Below are positions 2,124 through 45,313 of a stretch of DNA of 64,000 nucleotides, piece by piece. Below the pieces are notes generated by a model, which did not search any database, was not told where the DNA came from, and saw only the letters and a list, made by a program, of their open reading frames with translations. Origin of the DNA: an uncultured Sutterella sp. (GTDB lineage: Bacteria; Pseudomonadota; Gammaproteobacteria; Burkholderiales; Burkholderiaceae_F); the NCBI GenBank assembly GCA_900542805.1, contig UQOW01000007.1, positions 10,771-74,770 on the forward strand, written 5' to 3'. How positions within the stretch are numbered: the stretch's first letter is position 1; each line of letters opens with the position of its first letter. Position numbers and translations under genes: made by a program.

Positions 2124-5100
2124 CTACGCTTCCTTTCTCTGTAAGGATTGTACTGGGTGCTTGGCAAAGAATGTTTTCAGAGCAACACCGGTAGCCGAGG
2201 GTACTTCGGAGACGGCAAGCGGCGTGCCTTGTGCAACGATTTGACCACCGCCTTCGCCTCCCTCCGGGCCTAGGTCGATGACGTAATCGGCTTCGGCAAT
2301 TAAATCCAAATTGTGTTCGATAACGAGGACGGTGTTCCCGGCATCGGTCAATGCTTGCAGTACATGAATGAGCTTTTGCACATCGGCCATGTGTAGTCCC
2401 ACCGTCGGCTCGTCGAGGATGTAAAGCGTCCGAATCCGCTTATTGGTCCGCCGGGATGTTTTGGCTTTTGCGAGTTCGAAAACCAGTTTAATGCGCTGGG
2501 CTTCTCCCCCGGAAAGCGTCGTCGAAGGTTGCCCGAGTTTTAAGTATCCTAAGCCCACGGATTGCATCATGCGTAGGCCCTCGGCCACTTTGGTGTTCTT
2601 TTCAAATAGGGGTAAGGCTTCGTCGACACTCATTTGTAAGATGTCGCCGATGGATTTGCCGTGCCACAGGACCGTTAGTGTTTCTTCGTCAAAGCGCTTT
2701 CCGCCGCATGTCGGGCAGGTCATGGTCACATCCGGCAGGAAATTCATCTCGACCATGACTTCGCCGCGTCCGCTGCAAGTCGGACACCGTCCGTCCTCAG
2801 TGTTAAAGGAAAAGCGTGAGAGCGTCCAGCCGTGTTCTTTGGCGGTGTTCGTGCCTGCAAAAAGCTCGCGAATTTGTGAGAAGAAGCCCACGTAGGTCGC
2901 CGGGCACGAACTCGGAGTTTTCCCGATGGGGGTCTGGTCCACTTCCAGAACGCGGTCAACGGCATCCCAACAGGCAATCGCCTTACACCCGAAGTATGAG
3001 ACAGGATGCTCTCTCGGTGTTTTGCTGAGGCGCATTTTTAGGAGCGGTAATAGGACATCACGAGCCAAGGTGGATTTTCCGGAGCCGGAAACGCCTGTGA
3101 GTGCCACGAGTTTTCCGAGCGGAATATTAACGGTGACATTTTTCAGATTGTGCTTTACTGCTCCGCTAATTTGCATAAACACATCGCTCTTTCGAATCGG
3201 GTGACGCACTTTTCCCGAATGCGGCATCGGATTTTTCAGGCATTGCCCCGTAATACTTTCCGGGGTGGCCGTGATATCGGCCAGTGTCCCTTCGCAGACA
3301 AGAGCCCCGCCCATACTACCTGCTCCCGGACCGATATCGACGATGTGTTCGGCATGTCGAATCATGTCCTCGTCGTGTTCGACGACAATGACGGTATTCC
3401 CCTTGTTTTTTAAGGCAATCAGTCCGTCGATTAAGCGGGCGTTGTCGCGAGCGTGGAGCCCGATGGTCGGCTCGTCTAACACGTAACAGACCCCCTGAAG
3501 GCTGTTTCCGATTTGGGAGGCCAAGCGGATGCGCTGAGCTTCACCGCCCGATAGTGTCGGGGCTCCGCGATTCAGCGACAGATACCCGAGTCCGACTTCG
3601 TGCAGAAAACGAAGGCGCGTGAGGACTTCTTGAACGGCGCCTTGTCCGATGGCTTTTTCGCGGCCGGCAAGACGCATCCGGGAAAAGAACGTTAAGCAAT
3701 CGTCGACGCTCATCGAGCAGATTTGGCCGATGTTGTGTCCCCGGAAAACAAAGGACAGAGCGGTTTTGTTAAGGCGCAGTCCCTGGCAAGTCGGGCAGGG
3801 CTCTTCGTGACCGTTGAACTGTCCGGTTCCTGCACAGGTCGGGCACCAGCCTATGGGGCTGTTGTAGGAAAAAAGTCGCGGATCAGGTTCGGGAATTTCA
3901 ATCAAACAATCCGGACACATGCGCTTGGTTGTTAAATGCCGGGTTCCGGCACAGGATTCTTCAATCCCGCCGTCGGCGTAGCGCCCCCATCGGACGGACA
4001 CCAATCCTTTCCCGTAAAGAAAAGCACGGGAAAGGGCGCGGCGTAGTAGCGATTCGTTTTCTGGGGTGGCAATCAGGGTTTGGATGGCAAGGTCCACTGA
4101 CGCATTGTCAGAAAAACTGAGCCGGTCAAAATTTTGTATGTCCGCCCATGTCCCGTCGTAGCAGAAACGGGAGCCTCCCGCCTCTCGTATGAGTTTTTTC
4201 ATCGTCGATGGATAAGCCGGTTTTTCCGGACTCGACAGGGAGATGGTCAGAGAAACGCGATGTCCTTTGTAGGTATTAAGGATTTCCCGACAAATCGCTT
4301 CTTCGGTTTCCTTTATGACGGCTTCACCGCATTTCGGGCAATGCGGCGTACCGAGTTTGGTGAAAAGAAGGCGCAGATAGGGATGAATTCCGGTCATCGT
4401 GCCGACGGTCGACTTCAGGCCGCCGCGACTCGTGCGCTGTTCGATGGCTACGGTCGGGGCAATCCCGATAATCTGCTCGACATCGGGTTTGGTGGGCGGC
4501 TGCACGAGGGAGCGTGCATAGGCGTTTAAGCTTTCCAGGTACCGGCGCTGTCCTTCGGAGAAAATAATGCCGAAGGCCAGAGTGGATTTTCCGGAACCGG
4601 AAACGCCCGTGACGACCGTCAGTTTTTTCTTCGGAATAACGACATTTAAATCTTTGAGATTGTGTTCGCGAGCCCCGAAAATGCCCATGTCGCCGGATTT
4701 AGCTTTTCGCCAAACCGATTGCAGGGAGCGCCCCATGGCCGGCGGGGCTACAACACGACTCGTGGTGACGGATAGGTCGGCCATTGAAGCGCTCGGATCT
4801 TGAAATGCTTTTCGGTAGGCAGCAAGGGCCTTAGCCGTGTAGGTTGTTTTACGCGTGAGTCCGTCTGGGGTTCCGGCGGCAACGAGTTGTCCGCCCTTAT
4901 CTCCGCCGTCCGGACCCAAATCGATAACCCAGTCACTGGCGTTGATGACATCCAAATTGTGTTCAATCAGGATGACGGTTGCGCCGCCATCGACAAGACG
5001 GCGTAAGGACGAAAGGAGTTTGGTGATGTCATCGAAATGCAGTCCCGTTGTTGGTTCATCGAGAACGAAAACGTGGCCGGCCACCGATCGGAGTGAATTG

Positions 5101-7715
5101 GCTCCGGCCAAGGTCTCGGCAAGCTTTAGACGCTGCGACTCGCCGCCCGAAAGCGTCGGGAGCGGTTGTCCGAGTCGGATGTAATCCAGACCGACGTCTT
5201 TTAGGGCGTTGAGACGGTTACAGATGTCTCGGTGATTCTTAAAGTACTCCAAGGCCTGTGAGACGGTCATATCCAAGACATCGGCAATCGATACGTCGTG
5301 TTGACCGTCCAGGTTAATGGTTACCTCTAGAACTTCCGGACGGTAGCGTTTCCCGTTGCAGTTCGGACACTTCAGATAAAGGTCGCTTAAAAACTGCATT
5401 TCGACGTGCTCGAATCCCGTGCCCTGACAGGTCGGACATTGTCCGAGTGCGGAGTTAAAACTAAAGTAGCCGGCGCTGTAATTGTTAGCACGCGCTTTCG
5501 GGGTGGCTGCAAAAATCTTTCGAATGGTGTCGAAGGCATCGATATAAAGGACCGGAGTCGACCGCTTCGTGGCCGAAACGGCACTCTGATTGATTAAGTG
5601 AATGTCTCGGAGGTTTTCGCATCCGAAAACTTTCGCATCGGGAACGGAGGAAACGACCTTCCCGAAATGCCGTTGCAAGAGAGGCACGAGGGTATCGATG
5701 ATGAGCGAGGATTTTCCCGATCCGGAAACCCCGGTGACGGTTGTCAGGTGGCCGATAGGAAAACGAACCGTGACGTTGCGTAGGTTGTGCTCGCAGGCAT
5801 CGGCCACTTCAAGCCACCGAGTTTGAGTGGTCGGAGTTTGACGCGTCAGCTCGGCATCGGGACGCCGCCGTCCGCTCAAATATGCTCCCGTGAGCGTGTC
5901 GGAATGACAGAGTCCTTCCGGTGTCCCGTCAAAGACGATTTGACCGCCTTTTTCACCGGACCCCGGTCCCATATCGATGATGCGGTCGGCAGCGAGCATC
6001 ACTTGCGGATCGTGTTCGACGACAACGAGGGTGTTGCCGGCATCGCGAAGACGTCGCAAGATTCCGTTGACACGGTCCATGTCGCGCGGATGTAAGCCGA
6101 CTGACGGCTCGTCGAGAACAAAGAGCGTGTCGACAAGGTTCGTTCCGAGGGCTGTGGTTAGGTTGACGCGTTGCACTTCACCGCCTGAGAGCGTGCGGCT
6201 TTGTCGATCGAGCGTGAGATATCCGACACCGACATCCGTTAGATAATTGAGGCGAGTTAATGCCTGTTCGAGCACAAGACGCCCCGGTTCATCGAGGACT
6301 TCTTCCCGAATAACTTGCAAGAAGGCAATGAGCGACGTAATCGGCAGGAGCATCAAGTCGTGTAGTGTCAGTCCGGGAATCGAATCGATGACCTTGCGGA
6401 TTCCCGGAGCATCGTTCGGGATAAATCGTGAGCGACCGGCAAGAGCGACATCGGCTGCGGCTCGGCTTCCGATACGCCACAAGAGGGCATCGGGTTTTAG
6501 ACGGGCACCTCCGCAGGACGGACACGTGATATAGGTCCGATAGTGCATCAAAAGCATGCGGGCCGTAAAGGTGTACTTAGCTTTATCCGCAATATAAGCA
6601 AAAAAACGCCGGATTCCGTACCACAGATGTCGGTTTCCCGAGCGCCAGTTTGCGTCACCGTTCCAAACCCAGTGTTTTTGCTCTTCGGTCAGATGGCAAT
6701 ACGGAATATCCGTCGGAATGCCGGCTCTTTGAGCGCAGTCCATCAGTTCGTCATAGCAATCTGCGTAAGCGCTGCCTTTCCCCCAAGGTTTGATGCAGCG
6801 TTCGCTTAGGGTTTTGTTCGCATCGGGAATCACGAGAGCTTCGTCGATATCGATGGTGCGCCCGAATCCGTGGCACACGGGGCAAGCCCCGAGCGGCGAG
6901 TTAAAGCTGAAGGTCGAATTCGTTGCATCAGCATAGGCAATGTCGCAGGCAGCGCACTTAAGGCCTTCGGCATACGGCCAAAGCGCTTCTTGACCGTCGT
7001 CGCTAAGGACGTGGACGAGAAACTTTCCGGCAAACGCGCCTTTGCCGCTTTTAAGAGCTGTCTGCACGGCTTCGAGGCCGCGAGAAAGATCGGTTTTGGA
7101 GACACGGAATCGATCGGCCACGACGGAAAGAATCGTCCCGTCGGGTGTTTTGCGCTCGGCGTGGATTCGTGTAAAGCCTCGGGCAGCAAGACCGTTAACG
7201 GCAAGCTCGCAGTCAAAATCTTTCGGGATCAGAACGTCAAATGTGATGACAAGCCGAGGGTCGGAAGCCGCGGTTGCCCGGGAGCAAATGTCCGCCCACA
7301 TGTCCATCGGCGTCATGCGACGCACGGGTTGTCCGCACTGTTTGCAAAATAGGTGAGCTTCCTTTTCAAACAGAAGCTTGAGGTAATCATTCAGTTCTGT
7401 CATCGTCCCGACGGTCGAGCGCGACGTACGGATACTGTTACTTTGATTGATGGCAATCGCAGGCGGAACGCCTTCAATGCTGTCGACATCGGGCTTGTCA
7501 CACTTGTCGAGGAATTGACGCGCGTAGGAACTAAACGTTTCCACATACAGGCGTTGTCCTTCGCTATAAAGCGTGTCGAAGGCAAGAGAACTCTTGCCCG
7601 ATCCGGAAGGTCCGGTAATGACGGTCCACGTATTCGTCTTAATGTCCAGATTAATATTTTTTAAATTGTTTTGTCTGGCACCGCGAATGCGGATTTTTTC
7701 AGAAACTTTTGTCAT
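2124..7715 (-). CDS. tandem-duplicated UvrA-like ABC ATPase (two UvrA units fused, four nucleotide-binding cassettes, 1863 aa)
   Basis: Four Walker A motifs: [61 protein letters not shown]. Four LSGGE signature motifs. Eight Cys-pair signatures: in the first half CKQC, CAAC, CPVC and CPSC; in the second half CPKC, CPDC, CPTC and CPTC. The second unit begins near residue 930. Confidence 0.85.
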
Positions 7716-40799: not shown

Positions 40800-40916
40800 A
40801 AAACATCCTTTTCCAGTATCGCTTAGGCCACGTAATCATAGCGTTTTCTATCGCCAGGAAAAGTAAATTTGCTAGAGTGTTGCCCGTTGTTTGTTTTGTG
40901 GCTAGGAGAAATGACG

Positions 40917-42209
40917 ATGACTGTGCGGGTGCTGACCGGTATTAACACAACGGGAACGTTGCATTTAGGGAATTATTGCGGAGCGATTCGCCCCTGCATT
41001 CAGGCGTCTCACAAACCCGATGTGGAAAGTTTCTTTTTTATGGCGGACTTGCACGCCCTGATTAAGTGCCAGGATGCCGACCGCATTGAAAGAAGCCGCA
41101 TGCAGATTGCAGCGAGCTGGCTCGCAGCCGGGCTCGACCCGAACCACTGCACTTTTTATCGGCAAAGCGACATTCCGGAAATCCCGCTTCTGAACTGGCT
41201 TTTAAATTGCGTCTGTGCTAAAGGCTTGATGAATCGGGCTCATGCGTACAAGGCTTGCGTCGAGGCCAATGCAGCGGCCGATGCCGATCCCGATGCCGGG
41301 GTTTCGATGGGGCTTTTTTGCTACCCGGTCTTGATGGCCGCCGACATCCTGATGTTCAATGCCAATCTTGTTCCGGTCGGTCGCGATCAGATTCAGCATT
41401 TGGAAATGGCACGTGACATCGCGACGCGTTTTAACAATTTGTACGGACGTGGAAAGGACTTCTTTGTGCTTCCGTATGAACAAATCGACGAGCATGTTTC
41501 CATCTTGCCGGGCTTAGACGGCCGAAAGATGAGCAAAAGTTACAACAACGTCATTCCGCTATTTGAGGGCGGACATGCTGCGCTCGAGGAGGCGATCAGC
41601 CGCGTCGTAACCGACAGTCGCCTACCCGGCGAGCCCAAAGACCCGGAAAGCACGTCGCTCACGCAAATCTACGATGCCTTTGCCACGGAGCAGGAAAAAT
41701 CCCTGTTCCGAGAGGAGCTTCGCGACGGTCTCGGTTGGGGCGAAGCCAAGAAGCGCTTAGTGACCCAAATCGAAAAGGAAATCGGACCGATGCGCGAAAA
41801 GTATGCGTTCTTTATGGCGCATCCGCAGGAACTCGAAGACATCTTGCAGGCCGGAGCAAAAAAGGCGCGTCGCTTGGCTACACCCTTCCTGGCAACGCTA
41901 CGCGAAGCCGTGGGCTTGCGGCAATTTCATGCCGTCGGAGCTGCCGAAAAAGGAAAGGTTTCGACCAAGAAAAAGGCAACGGCTGCTCTCAAGCAATATC
42001 GAGAAGAAGACGGTAAATTCTATTTCAAGCTGACCGATGCCGCCGGGCGTCTGTTGCTCACCTCCCGGCCTTTTGAGAGCGGGAAAGAGGCCGGAATGGT
42101 CGTCGGACAGATGAAACAAGGAAAAATGCAGGATGTTTTGCCGCAAGTCGTATTTGCCGACGGCGTGACCGAAGAGACGGTGCGCCAGGCCTTAACGGAA
42201 CTTGCCTAA
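40917..42209 (+). CDS. trpS: tryptophan--tRNA ligase with a C-terminal YegP/DUF1508-like extension
   Basis: TGINTTGTLHLGNY (HIGH-type), KMSKS, and a C-terminus EEDGKFYFKLTDAAGRLLLTSRPFESGKEAG resembling DUF1508 repeats. Start taken at the second ATG, 8 nt after AGGAG. Confidence 0.85.
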   Translation: MTVRVLTGINTTGTLHLGNYCGAIRPCIQASHKPDVESFFFMADLHALIKCQDADRIERSRMQIAASWLAAGLDPNHCTFYRQSDIPEIPLLNWLLNCVCAKGLMNRAHAYKACVEANAAADADPDAGVSMGLFCYPVLMAADILMFNANLVPVGRDQIQHLEMARDIATRFNNLYGRGKDFFVLPYEQIDEHVSILPGLDGRKMSKSYNNVIPLFEGGHAALEEAISRVVTDSRLPGEPKDPESTSLTQIYDAFATEQEKSLFREELRDGLGWGEAKKRLVTQIEKEIGPMREKYAFFMAHPQELEDILQAGAKKARRLATPFLATLREAVGLRQFHAVGAAEKGKVSTKKKATAALKQYREEDGKFYFKLTDAAGRLLLTSRPFESGKEAGMVVGQMKQGKMQDVLPQVVFADGVTEETVRQALTELA

Positions 42210-42350
42210 GAAAGGCCGAACAGAATAGGTTACGCGGCCGGAGGTCTCGGTTTCAGAGCTTTCGGCTGACTTTTCTCAGAGGGCCTAGGAAAAATCCCCG
42301 AGGCGGATGTGTAGCGCACAAGACAAATTCTTGCTACAGTACGACGTGTT

Positions 42351-42425
42351 ATGACAAACATCGAGAACAAATTTTTCGGCTGGTGGCTCTGGCGGTACGA
42401 TCCGTCAGCGTTTGTTGCTGTTTAA
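42351..42425 (+). CDS. Trp-rich leader peptide (24 aa, MTNIENKFFGWWLWRYDPSAFVAV)
   Basis: Short ORF with three Trp codons at 42381–42392. It overlaps RNA segment 1 of an attenuator, immediately upstream of trpB2. Confidence 0.7.
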   Translation: MTNIENKFFGWWLWRYDPSAFVAV

Positions 42426-42489
42426 TCGTTACGTTTTCGTTTTAAAGGCTGACGGATTGAAAGGAGTGCTTTCAGTCCGTTTTTTATTG
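42379..42489 (+). promoter_or_regulatory. transcription attenuator with three alternative pairings (1:2 pause, 2:3 antiterminator, 3:4 terminator plus U-tract)
   Basis: 1:2 is GCUGGUGG with CCGUCAGC. 2:3 is AUCCGUCAGC with GCUGACGGAU. 3:4 is ACGGAUUGAAAG-GAGUG-CUUUCAGUCCGU, followed by UUUUUUAUU. Confidence 0.7.
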
Positions 42490-42521
42490 CCTGAAATCTT
42501 TCCTCAATCAAGGAGACAACC

Positions 42522-43892
42522 ATGGAAAAGATGCCCTACAAGACCTACCTGGAAGAAAATGAGATTCCGACGGCCTGGTATAACCTGCGGGCGGATATGA
42601 AAAACAAGCCTGCTCCGATGCTCAATCCGGCGACGTTAAAACCTGTGACAGCAGCGGATTTAACGCCGGTTTTCTGCGAGGAACTTGTTTCTCAGGAGTT
42701 AAACGTCACCGATCCGTGGATTGATATCCCCGGGGAGGTCCTCGATTTTTACAAGATGTACAGGCCTTCGCCCTTAATTCGGGCGTATTGCTTGGAAAAG
42801 GTTTTGGGAACGCCGGCGAAGATTTTCTACAAATTCGAAGGGCAAAACACCTCGGGAAGCCACAAACTCAATTCGGCGATTGCTCAGGCTTATTACGCCA
42901 AAAAGCAGGGGCTTAAGGGCGTGACAACCGAAACCGGTGCGGGACAGTGGGGCACAGCTCTTTCGATGGCCTGTGCCTACTTAGGGCTTGACTGCAACGT
43001 TTTTATGGTCAAGTGCTCGTATGAACAAAAGCCGCAACGTAAAGAAGTGATGCGTACGTTCGGTGCAACCGTAACGCCTTCGCCTTCGAACACGACGAAA
43101 ATCGGTCGTAAGATGCTCGAGGAATTTCCGGGAACCACTGGTAGCCTCGGTTGCGCCATTTCCGAGGCCGTCGAGTCCGCCGTCAGTCGCCCCGGATATC
43201 GGTATGTGCTCGGCTCAGTCCTTTCGCAGGTGTTGCTGCACCAAACGGTTGTCGGTCTTGAGTCGCAGGCCGCATTGGCTCGCTACGGTCTGACACCGGA
43301 CATCATCATCGGATGCGCCGGGGGCGGATCGAACCTCGGGGGACTCATTAGTCCCTTCGTCGGGGAGAAGATCAAAGGAAAGCTCGATAGCCGCATCATT
43401 GCCGTGGAGCCTGCAAGTTGCCCGAGCCTGACGCGCGGACGCTATGCCTACGACTTTTGCGATACGGGTCGCGTATGCCCGCTCCAGAAGATGTACACAC
43501 TCGGATCTAGTTTCATCCCGTCGGCCAATCACGCCGGAGGACTGCGTTACCACGGTATGAGCGCGATTGTTTCGCAGCTGTATGCAGACGGTCTAATCGA
43601 AGCGCGAGCCGTCGAACAGACTTCGGTTTTTGCTGCCGCGGAAAAGTTTGCCCGTTGCGAAGGAATTCTGCCTGCTCCCGAAAGCAGTCACGCCATTAAG
43701 GTTGCGATTGACGAGGCCTTACGGTGCAAAGAAACCGGTCAAGAGAAGGTCATTCTTTTCTGTCTGACGGGAACCGGGTACTTCGACATGTCGGCTTACC
43801 AGCGCTTTAACGACGGCGCGATGAGCGACACGATTCCGTCCGATGCCGACCTTGAGAAGAGTTTTGACAAAATGCCTGAGGTGAACCTGTAG
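42522..43892 (+). CDS. trpB2: TrpB2-type tryptophan synthase beta-like PLP enzyme (stand-alone, indole-salvaging type)
   Basis: YLEENEIPTAWYNLRADM…RPSPLIRAYCLEKVLGTPAKIFYKFEGQNTSGSHKLNSA…TETGAGQWG. This is the COG1350/TrpB2 N-terminal extension plus the PLP-lysine motif. RBS AAGGAGA. Confidence 0.8.
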   Translation: MEKMPYKTYLEENEIPTAWYNLRADMKNKPAPMLNPATLKPVTAADLTPVFCEELVSQELNVTDPWIDIPGEVLDFYKMYRPSPLIRAYCLEKVLGTPAKIFYKFEGQNTSGSHKLNSAIAQAYYAKKQGLKGVTTETGAGQWGTALSMACAYLGLDCNVFMVKCSYEQKPQRKEVMRTFGATVTPSPSNTTKIGRKMLEEFPGTTGSLGCAISEAVESAVSRPGYRYVLGSVLSQVLLHQTVVGLESQAALARYGLTPDIIIGCAGGGSNLGGLISPFVGEKIKGKLDSRIIAVEPASCPSLTRGRYAYDFCDTGRVCPLQKMYTLGSSFIPSANHAGGLRYHGMSAIVSQLYADGLIEARAVEQTSVFAAAEKFARCEGILPAPESSHAIKVAIDEALRCKETGQEKVILFCLTGTGYFDMSAYQRFNDGAMSDTIPSDADLEKSFDKMPEVNL

Positions 43893-43962
43893 GACTTTTT
43901 CAGGTCAGAGTACGGCGCCGGTTTCGAGGCACCGTACTCACTTACGAATCGCGTTGGCAAAG

Positions 43963-44830: not shown

Positions 44831-45313
44831 TTACTCCTTTCCCGGTGTTGCTTCAGGGGGGTTCCAAGCAGCAATGACGTCCAAAGCTTGTTTCGCGGAG
44901 GGCGCTTTCATCAGGGATTCTCGGACTTCTTTGTCGCGCAGAAATTCGGCCACATCCGAAAGAATGGCCAGATAGGCGTCCGGGTTGCTTTCCGGAATGG
45001 CCACGGCAAAAAACAGTTGTGCCGTCGTCTGCCCCGGTCCGTCGTAATCAATCGGCTGTTTGGTTCTCACCAGGCAGAGCCCGGGATCGACAATTCCGTT
45101 AATACGGGCATGGGGAATGCCGGCGCGACACCCTAAGCCCGTCGGTCCGAGTTTTTCGCGTGCAATCAGGGCATCGAAAACGCTTTGCGCCGGGACTCCG
45201 GAAGAGACGGACAAAATTCGGGAAACTTCTTCGAAAAGGCGTTTTCGGCTCAAGACATCTAAGTCAAGCAGGATGTTTTCATTCGGATTTAATAACGGAG
45301 CAATGTGATTCAT
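44831..45313 (-). CDS. ptsN: PTS IIA-like nitrogen regulatory protein (EIIA-Ntr)
   Basis: 160 aa EIIA fructose/mannitol-type fold. Sits between rpoN and rapZ as in the canonical locus. Confidence 0.8.
   Translation of the reverse strand: MNHIAPLLNPNENILLDLDVLSRKRLFEEVSRILSVSSGVPAQSVFDALIAREKLGPTGLGCRAGIPHARINGIVDPGLCLVRTKQPIDYDGPGQTTAQLFFAVAIPESNPDAYLAILSDVAEFLRDKEVRESLMKAPSAKQALDVIAAWNPPEATPGKE

Follow-up and report, generated by a model that had tools for sequence, protein, structure and literature searches.

The 64-kb stretch analyzed here (the window; 64,000 nt of contig UQOW01000007.1, from an uncultured Sutterella sp.) is a chromosomal segment of a gut Sutterellaceae bacterium, and a 9.4-kb part of it is colinear with contig L001 (“uncultured Sutterella sp. 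UMGS662”), the two being 89% identical in nucleotide sequence. Locally, dsbB and dsbA on the minus strand are followed by trpS on the plus strand, a leader element, trpB2 on the plus strand, and then rapZ, an open reading frame (ORF) at 44831–45313 whose counterpart from relatives contains a PTS_EIIA_2 domain, and rpoN, all three on the minus strand. The subject of this analysis is the leader element, which we read with good confidence as a ribosome-mediated leader-peptide transcription attenuator that ties trpB2 expression to the supply of charged tRNA-Trp.

The gene downstream of the element was identified from its product, which scored 674.3 bits against NF009057 (cutoff 366) and 588.4 bits against TIGR01415 (cutoff 518.85). 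The score against the canonical trpB model TIGR00263 was 144.5 bits, below the cutoff of 392.45, and the encoded pyridoxal phosphate (PLP)-dependent enzyme is of the TrpB2 type, not a canonical TrpB. Enzymes of the TrpB2 family make tryptophan from indole and serine (or phosphoserine). The gene is monocistronic, with rapZ converging on it from downstream, and stands alone: its neighbours are trpS and rapZ, trpA does not adjoin it, and no trp biosynthetic gene other than trpB2 was found among the ∼40 larger ORFs of the window scanned against Pfam. A stand-alone trpB2 is also what an earlier reading of the same DNA (the original prediction) had named as the target of an attenuator, and the profile scores and the lack of an adjoining trp biosynthetic gene agree with it.

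The leader ORF sits 97 nt upstream of trpB2 and, as claimed in that reading, is 24 codons long (42351–42425) and has three Trp codons within a four-codon stretch (TGG at 42381–83, 42384–86 and 42390–92). The positions, energies, mutual exclusivity and conservation of the elements built around these codons were computed. Hairpin 1:2, which had been expected to overlap the Trp codons, does so, its 5′ arm CUGGCGG covering codons W14 and R15; the register originally proposed for it (GCUGGUGG/CCGUCAGC, −7.7 kcal/mol) is weaker than CUGGCGG/CCGUCAG (−10.6 kcal/mol as a bare helix, −12.8 kcal/mol with two outer pairs); it, too, overlaps the Trp codons. Segment 2, ATCCGTCAGC (42400–42409), is perfectly complementary to segment 3, GCTGACGGAT (42448–42457), in agreement with the pairing predicted for them, and the helix extends to 12 bp, with an energy of −22.6 to −23.7 kcal/mol. 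The terminator hairpin 3:4 consists of ACGGATTGAAAG (42452–63), the loop GAGTG and CTTTCAGTCCGT (42469–80), at −18.5 to −21.1 kcal/mol; the predicted 12-bp stem and T-rich tail are both there, and the stem counts 13 bp if G42451·U42481 is included. The tail ends at 42488, leaving 33 nt to the trpB2 ATG (42522) and 21 nt to AAGGAG, so that the distance of about 33 nt formerly given to the ribosome-binding site is in fact the distance to the start codon. Because 2:3 and 3:4 share 42451–42459 and 1:2 and 2:3 share 42402–42408, the three helices exclude one another as described, and a folding check confirmed these mutually exclusive structures.

Homologous leaders were gathered by searches based on TrpB2 and TrpS, which gave eight further contigs, apart from L172, which matches the window leader stretch exactly. 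They form three lineages, namely type A (the window, L001 and L081), type B (L206) and type C (L002, L205, L210, L212 and L213). The leader peptide of type B reads MRLIENKFFGWWLWR and that of type C M(I/T)FIEKNFFGWWLWR, each followed by a stop. Carriers of the element include the assemblies UQUS01, GCA_964509205.1, GCA_963629625.1, GCA_963624455.1 and CAVCTI01. Conservation was counted in alignment A2, with 7 leaders from the 3 lineages. Four-fold synonymous sites of trpB2 are 24–42% identical between the lineages and are saturated, while 54 of the 56 stem and Trp-codon positions are invariant. Kept across the relatives are the ATG, the FFGWWLWR core, all four segments and the T-tract; the loops, the spacers and the peptide tail have diverged. 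The nine core pairs of 2:3 are invariant, the only substitutions in stems are from A-U to G·U, and the one in L213 (equivalent to window position 42452) remains paired in both the terminator and the antiterminator. Energies are similar across the three lineages, at −12.8 to −15.3 kcal/mol for 1:2, −18.2 to −22.6 kcal/mol for 2:3 and −17.1 to −18.5 kcal/mol for 3:4. Coordinates and conservation are collected in the table.

Table. Features of the trpS–trpB2 region of the window, and conservation of the leader element.
Feature	Position	Strand	Remarks
Predicted extended −10, TGcTACAGT (TGnTAnAnT)	42332..42340	+	Conserved in 7 leaders; promoter function predicted
Predicted transcription start, 3–5 nt 5′ untranslated region	42346..42348	+	Usual 6–8 nt from the −10 hexamer; G42346, G42348
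Leader ORF (trpL-like), 24 codons, MTNIENKFFGWWLWRYDPSAFVAV then stop	42351..42425	+	ATG and reading frame conserved in all relatives
Regulatory Trp codons TGG TGG CTC TGG (W11, W12, L13, W14)	42381..42392	+	Invariant in 9/9 homologous leaders
Hairpin 1:2 (anti-antiterminator), CUGGCGG 42389–95 with CCGUCAG 42402–08	42389..42408	+	Minimum free energy folds; 7/7 pairs invariant
Antiterminator 2:3, 42398–42409 with 42448–42459	42398..42459	+	12 bp (one G·U) in the window; 9–10 bp core in relatives
Terminator hairpin 3:4, 13-bp stem, GAGTG loop 42464–68	42451..42481	+	12/13 pairs invariant, one A-U to G·U
Terminator T-tract TTTTTATT	42481..42488	+	6/8 positions invariant
trpB2 Shine-Dalgarno sequence AAGGAG	42510..42515	+	−8.5 kcal/mol to anti-Shine-Dalgarno; invariant in alignment; not sequestered by leader structures
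trpB2, TrpB-like PLP-dependent enzyme, 456 aa, monocistronic	42522..43892	+	NF009057, TIGR01415, Pfam PALP
trpS (tryptophan--tRNA ligase)	40917..42209	+	NF008923 662 bits (cutoff 597); upstream neighbour of leader
Segment 1 with Trp codons			18/18 invariant
Segment 2			9/10 invariant
Segment 3			10/10 invariant
Rest of terminator 5′ arm			5/6 invariant
Terminator 3′ arm			12/12 invariant
Terminator loop			0/5 invariant
Spacer between segments 2 and 3			14/38 invariant (37%)
Stretch between T-tract and Shine-Dalgarno sequence			5/20 invariant (25%)

The element follows trpB2 and not trpS. A convergent ORF parts the leader from trpS in L002, L205, L210 and L212, and L213 has a convergent ORF plus an IS110 transposase gene at this place; the intergenic region between trpS and the leader is an insertion hotspot. 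Conversely, Sutterellaceae trpS loci without trpB2 (L207, L208, L209 and L211) are also without the leader. The convergent ORF of type C encodes 135–163 aa (L002:3064–3555(−), L205:5382–5789(−), L210:4881–5291(−), L212:1482–1889(−), L213:3811–5139) and had no Pfam match in L002, the copy that was scanned, nor is a match on record for the others. In the four loci lacking trpB2, TrpS is 72–80% identical and has neither trpB2 nor a leader beside its gene; in L209 (3501–8299), which is otherwise syntenic, an autotransporter gene comes after trpS. From these close relatives, trpB2 is a variable, accessory gene in the Sutterellaceae. An nhmmer profile of the leader, run against 211 fetched loci (1.5 Mb) and the window, returned only the known Sutterellaceae copies and no second copy in the window. 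A metagenome scan with back-translated FFGWWLW gave at least 120 stretches, and among the matches listed all but L172 were chance or coding matches, with no new lineages.

The leader appears to be transcribed from a promoter of its own. Six of the nine positions of the extended −10 element are invariant in the 7 leaders, and these are exactly the consensus T, G, T, A, A and T; the distance from the element to the leader ATG is always 10 nt, though that spacer is only 30% invariant. An extended −10 of the same kind, TGCTAGAGT, lies at 40870–78 in the trpS promoter region. In type C the convergent gene between trpS and the leader makes a separate promoter necessary. G42346 is invariant in 7/7 leaders, and G42348, though constant throughout the four-sequence alignment, is replaced by A in L206. 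Together, the conserved element at its fixed distance, the likeness to the trpS promoter and the need for a promoter in type C suggest a near-leaderless transcript that starts ∼3–5 nt before the AUG and is translated in a leaderless-like manner. No convincing conserved palindrome of the TrpR operator type was seen by eye at the promoter in the 7-leader alignment.

That the ORF is translated is suggested by two patterns. The variable columns within codons 4–9 fall at third codon positions in 4 of 4 cases (chance ∼0.005 by our own hypergeometric estimate), and the frame running from the ATG through the Trp codons to a stop has been kept in all lineages. Types B and C end after R15, at a TAA that corresponds to TAC in the window, whereas type A continues to codon 24. 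The tail after R15, found only in type A, is therefore dispensable, and with either stop a terminating ribosome would sit on segment 2 or beside it. Note that a small A/U-rich hairpin (CGAGAA/UUUUCG, window 42362–42378) lies within leader codons 4–10 and is kept in type C through changes from G-C to G·U and from G·U to A-U. These changes are also third-codon-position substitutions, and constraint on the RNA and on the peptide are therefore inseparable here.

The spacing of codons and segments was compared with the geometry that stalling would need. The first Trp codon lies 17–19 nt upstream of segment 2 (14–19 nt from a stall at W11 or W12). As for the stop codon, types B and C have it 5 nt ahead of the segment 2 core and type A has it 14 nt beyond segment 2. 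On the assumption of a ribosome footprint of ∼13–15 nt 3′ of the A site, this geometric argument fits a stalled ribosome that would free segment 2 and a ribosome at the stop codon that would mask it.

We read attenuation from what lies directly ahead of a gene for tryptophan synthesis, where segment 1 contains Trp codons, three hairpins overlap and a T-tract follows; the start site, translation of the ORF, stalling geometry and response to tryptophan we infer. The extended −10 promoter would start transcription a few nucleotides ahead of the leader AUG. When tryptophan is plentiful, a ribosome would read the 15–24 codon leader to its stop and cover segment 2, or be released so that 1:2 re-forms; segment 3 would then be free to pair with segment 4, and termination at the T-tract near 42488 would yield a leader RNA of ∼140 nt. 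With no translation at all, 3:4 would likewise form and terminate. When charged Trp-tRNA is scarce, the ribosome would stall at W11 or W12 (42381–86), masking segment 1 and leaving segment 2 free to capture segment 3 before segment 4 is made, so that the terminator 5′ arm would be occupied and polymerase would read through into trpB2. Given the activity known for the TrpB2 family, such a circuit would turn on indole salvage under tryptophan starvation.

Several results weigh against this reading. The leader ORF has no Shine-Dalgarno sequence in any lineage, as judged from the 20 nt upstream of the ATG tested against the anti-Shine-Dalgarno sequence: binding is −0.6 kcal/mol in the window and −0.6 to +1.2 kcal/mol in the lineages, compared with a median of −2.9 kcal/mol for random 20-mers. 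Leader translation thus depends on the near-leaderless start, itself a prediction. The original prediction had named the lack of a usable ribosome-binding site as a reason to doubt it, and the Shine-Dalgarno sequence is indeed absent; a promoter giving a 3–5 nt 5′ untranslated region (UTR) plausibly resolves this. In masked-fold calculations, the terminator wins at equilibrium even with segment 1 masked, and the switch must therefore be kinetic and co-transcriptional, as in E. coli. The z-score of the whole-leader fold is modest (−2.37). The comparison of orthologous trpS–trpB2 regions called for in the original prediction found WWLW and the stems conserved; the compensatory changes it had also proposed to look for were not found at any stem pair in the available sequences, so that the structures rest on invariance and thermodynamics, and the sample holds only three independent lineages. 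A lack of covariation is expected where every segment can pair in two ways and one of them has Trp codons to encode as well, and attenuator segments with several partners have been described as conserved over long distances with little covariation (PMC1262725).

Taken singly, the pieces are also statistically weak: the window has one TGGTGGNNNTGG where 0.27 would be expected, and at least one copy turns up in 22% of shuffles. It is conservation that raises the element above chance.

A function in trans, besides or instead of attenuation in cis, is an unlikely alternative, in which the leader peptide or the ∼140-nt RNA would act elsewhere, like peTrpL and rnTrpL. The trans functions of these molecules in Sinorhizobium meliloti provide a precedent (PMC7298713, PMC6614838), and the N-terminal peptide I-E-N/K-K/N-F-F-G-W-W-L-W-R shows more conservation than a sensor of codons alone would need. 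Against it, the C-terminal 9 residues occur in type A only, and the window contains no second copy of the element and no target-like match.

Rather unlikely is that the ORF, having no Shine-Dalgarno sequence in any lineage, is never translated and that the element is a constitutive terminator or insulator (“super-attenuation”, with 1:2 and 3:4 always formed), trpB2 then being expressed by leak-through or in response to another signal; the element could in that case be the real trpS terminator in types A and B. The equilibrium preference for the terminator agrees with this, as does the trpS–leader gap of the window, in which a hairpin at ∼42235–42268 is followed by CUUUUCUC and no strong canonical terminator is present. 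However, a perfectly conserved antiterminator arm (segment 2) would be without purpose in an untranslated element. The ATG, the Trp codons and the stop are conserved in one frame, in which codons 4–9 vary at third positions only, a −10-like element is held at a fixed distance from the ATG, and in type C the convergent gene parts the element from trpS, so that there it is not the trpS terminator.

Very unlikely is a real switch set by a trans-acting factor, either an RNA-binding protein or uncharged tRNA-Trp bound to the UGG-rich stretch. UGG UGG CUC UGG is readable in principle by a tRNA anticodon or a protein, and orthologues in Firmicutes use a tRNA-sensing T-box, but the leader shows neither a T-box sequence nor an array of TRAP-like (G/U)AG repeats, Rfam gave no family match to it, T-box included, even at E ≤ 10, and the in-frame ATG, Trp codons and stop, with their codon-position pattern, point to translation. 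Chance, a short ORF with TGG codons beside an ordinary terminator, draws on the non-significant TGGTGGNNNTGG count and the fold z-score of −2.4 and is effectively refuted, as far as the conservation pattern can tell, by a whole architecture conserved in three lineages with saturated neutral sites and present only where trpB2 is present.

Two further candidates were rejected. Co-transcription with trpS as the sole source of the leader transcript is ruled out by the type C convergent ORF. TnaC-like sensing of free tryptophan by the nascent peptide was rejected because types B and C have no C-terminal tail and because a biosynthetic gene would call for the opposite logic.

Attenuation as the preferred reading receives independent support from orthologues outside the Sutterellaceae. 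The next-closest TrpB2 proteins, at 75–80% identity, come from metagenome-assembled genomes of gut Firmicutes, Bacteroidales and Spirochaetes. In a neighbour-joining tree without bootstrap (loci L001–L084 and the window), the Sutterellaceae form one clade nested among Firmicutes, as sister to L082, and a Bacteroidales group (L003, L055, L058 and L072) forms another clade nested among Firmicutes. This pattern is consistent with horizontal transfer. Several entries labelled “Bacteroidales” (L060, L068) are almost identical to Firmicutes ones, and taken with the tree they suggest horizontal transfer and/or mis-binned contigs.

Upstream of trpB2, L003, L055 and L072 have a leader ORF of unrelated sequence in which three Trp codons stand in a row (..NNWWWRN.., ..NSWWWHS.. 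and ..YSWWWRS.., respectively) and a GC-rich terminator. These leaders (L003:3656–3800, L055:3825–3900 and L072:3750–3830) lie about 100–350 nt upstream of trpB2 at 4001 and have a conserved GTCGTAGGAGG stop region and the terminator AGCCCyGCCGC....GCGACrGGGCTTTTT; no Rfam family matched them. A T-box leader (105 bits; L010, 3695–3945) with the specifier UGG (Trp) lies ahead of an orthologous trpB2 from a Ruminococcus. The proteins encoded behind the WWW leaders and the T-box are ∼78% identical to that of the window, and nhmmer with the Sutterellaceae leader found nothing in the WWW-leader or T-box loci. The trpB2 gene thus appears wired to the charging of Trp-tRNA by three unrelated RNA devices, the WWLW leader, the WWW leader and the UGG T-box, and the latter two, acting on orthologues, lend independent support to tryptophan control of trpB2. 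Such control is not universal, since a T-box pattern search and a scan for Trp runs upstream of 80 trpB2 orthologues left most Firmicutes loci without an obvious RNA sensor within 500 nt.

A wider account is tentative, and we think it somewhat less probable than its negation: a trpB2 of the Firmicutes type may have been transferred horizontally into the Sutterellaceae and have gained there a lineage-specific Trp attenuator with a near-leaderless sensory ORF (no Shine-Dalgarno sequence, −10 element at 10 nt), this being one of three unrelated Trp-tRNA sensors independently placed on the transferred gene in three gut phyla.

The genes around the element show some further features. The trpS start was set at ATG 40917, since homologues are 430–434 aa long; the mechanical ORF call from TTG 40869 is too long by this comparison. 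In relatives, trpS forms a transcription unit separate from the leader and trpB2. After its extended −10, trpS has an ordinary ∼35-nt 5′ UTR with AGGAGA, no attenuator being present there, and its Shine-Dalgarno sequence binds the anti-Shine-Dalgarno sequence at −7.3 kcal/mol. TrpS carries a C-terminal extension (∼80–100 residues, window 41970–42209) beyond the class I catalytic core; it lies within the full-length NF008923 model and has no Pfam match, and PF07411 is on record for one homologue (P0144). Between trpB2 and rapZ, which converge, a gap of 70 nt (43893–43962) contains a long hairpin, GAGTACGGCGCC...GGCACCGTACTC, with a T-tract on neither side, which may be a bidirectional terminator. 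In L081 (622–3535) the leader is nearly identical to that of L001, and the TrpB2 protein is only 83% identical to that of the window. The place of the convergent rapZ is taken there by glyA (serine hydroxymethyltransferase), downstream of trpB2 and on its strand. The locus may have recombined, or trpB2 and glyA may form a unit linking serine supply to tryptophan synthesis. Elsewhere in the window (2124–7715, minus strand), a 1863-aa ORF combines UvrA DNA-binding and interaction domains with several ABC ATPase modules, at ∼2 times the normal size of UvrA.

The role of stand-alone TrpB2 has been debated, with indole salvage, serine deaminase and another, unidentified function as the candidates (PMC1854888). 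A switch on trpB2 that responds to tryptophan starvation would be regulatory evidence that the enzyme makes tryptophan in vivo, and the leader control described here, taken with the TrpB2 literature (PMC1854888; PMC11085991), would support such a role. This evidence gains weight from the orthologues in other gut phyla, with their two further and unrelated Trp sensors, and in the indole-rich gut the substrate of TrpB2 is most plausibly scavenged indole. If the transfer account were true, TrpB2 would be marked as a starvation-induced indole-to-tryptophan salvage enzyme of gut bacteria, a leaderless-type leader peptide would drive a classical terminator/antiterminator switch in a proteobacterium, and the locus would be a clean example of regulatory rewiring after gene transfer. 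The element would add to the betaproteobacteria a Trp leader that goes undetected by current RNA family libraries and is missed in automatic annotation of Sutterella and Duodenibacillus genomes, and its promoter-proximal ORF without a Shine-Dalgarno sequence would offer a test case for the loading of the first ribosome in attenuation.

The mechanism itself is known; the target (a lone trpB2) and the lineage (Sutterellaceae) are unusual for it, and the leader ORF is apparently near-leaderless. Searches of full-text literature, with incomplete coverage, turned up no description of such a leader ahead of a TrpB2-type gene from Sutterellaceae. No Rfam family matched at the gathering threshold over the window, and at E ≤ 10 positions 42150–42600 gave only two chance-level matches, neither to Trp_leader nor to T-box. 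No T-box (RF00230) is recognizable in the window; L010, by contrast, reaches 105 bits. Of the features that define a trpL-type attenuator, clustered Trp codons, an intrinsic terminator, an overlapping antiterminator, a 1:2 helix overlapping the regulatory codons and suitable spacing are present, while translation of the leader ORF and greater read-through at low charged tRNA-Trp are predicted. The element is a functional analogue of the Trp_leader RF00513, not a member of that sequence family.

With the trpL of E. coli and other enterobacteria (RF00513), the element shares a short ORF, adjacent Trp codons in segment 1, the 1:2, 2:3 and 3:4 helices, a U-tract and the same logic, as well as a similar ...G-W-W-..-R peptide core and, in types B and C, a stop codon between segments 1 and 2. 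It differs in controlling a single trpB2 rather than trpEDCBA, in its host (the betaproteobacterial family Sutterellaceae), in having three Trp codons (WWLW) rather than two, and in having no Shine-Dalgarno sequence on the leader ORF and a −10 element 10 nt from the AUG. Classical Trp attenuators have also been described for trpE(G) of S. meliloti, for the trp operons of Corynebacterium and Streptomyces and for trpS2 of S. avermitilis (PMC6614838; PMC1262725). These alphaproteobacterial and actinobacterial systems likewise combine Trp-codon leader peptides with a terminator and antiterminator, and differ in sequence, host and target gene; “trpB2A” of C. diphtheriae (PMC1262725) is the name of a second-copy gene, the product of which that paper does not call a TrpB2-family enzyme. 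Leaderless poly-Cys short ORFs of mycobacteria act as Cys-responsive attenuators (bioRxiv 10.1101/834739) and resemble the present leader, as predicted here, in having a sensory ORF without a Shine-Dalgarno sequence at the very 5′ end of the transcript, with expression of the genes behind it set by stalling at codons for the product of the pathway. They start exactly at the AUG and act on translation by sequestering the ribosome-binding site, whereas the present element has a terminator with a T-tract and would have a 5′ UTR of 3–5 nt. The Trp T-box of L010 and the Bacteroidales WWW leaders share with the element the target gene (75–80% identical protein) and the signal, the charging of Trp-tRNA; they differ in that their sequences are unrelated to it and, in the case of the T-box, in the sensing mechanism as well.

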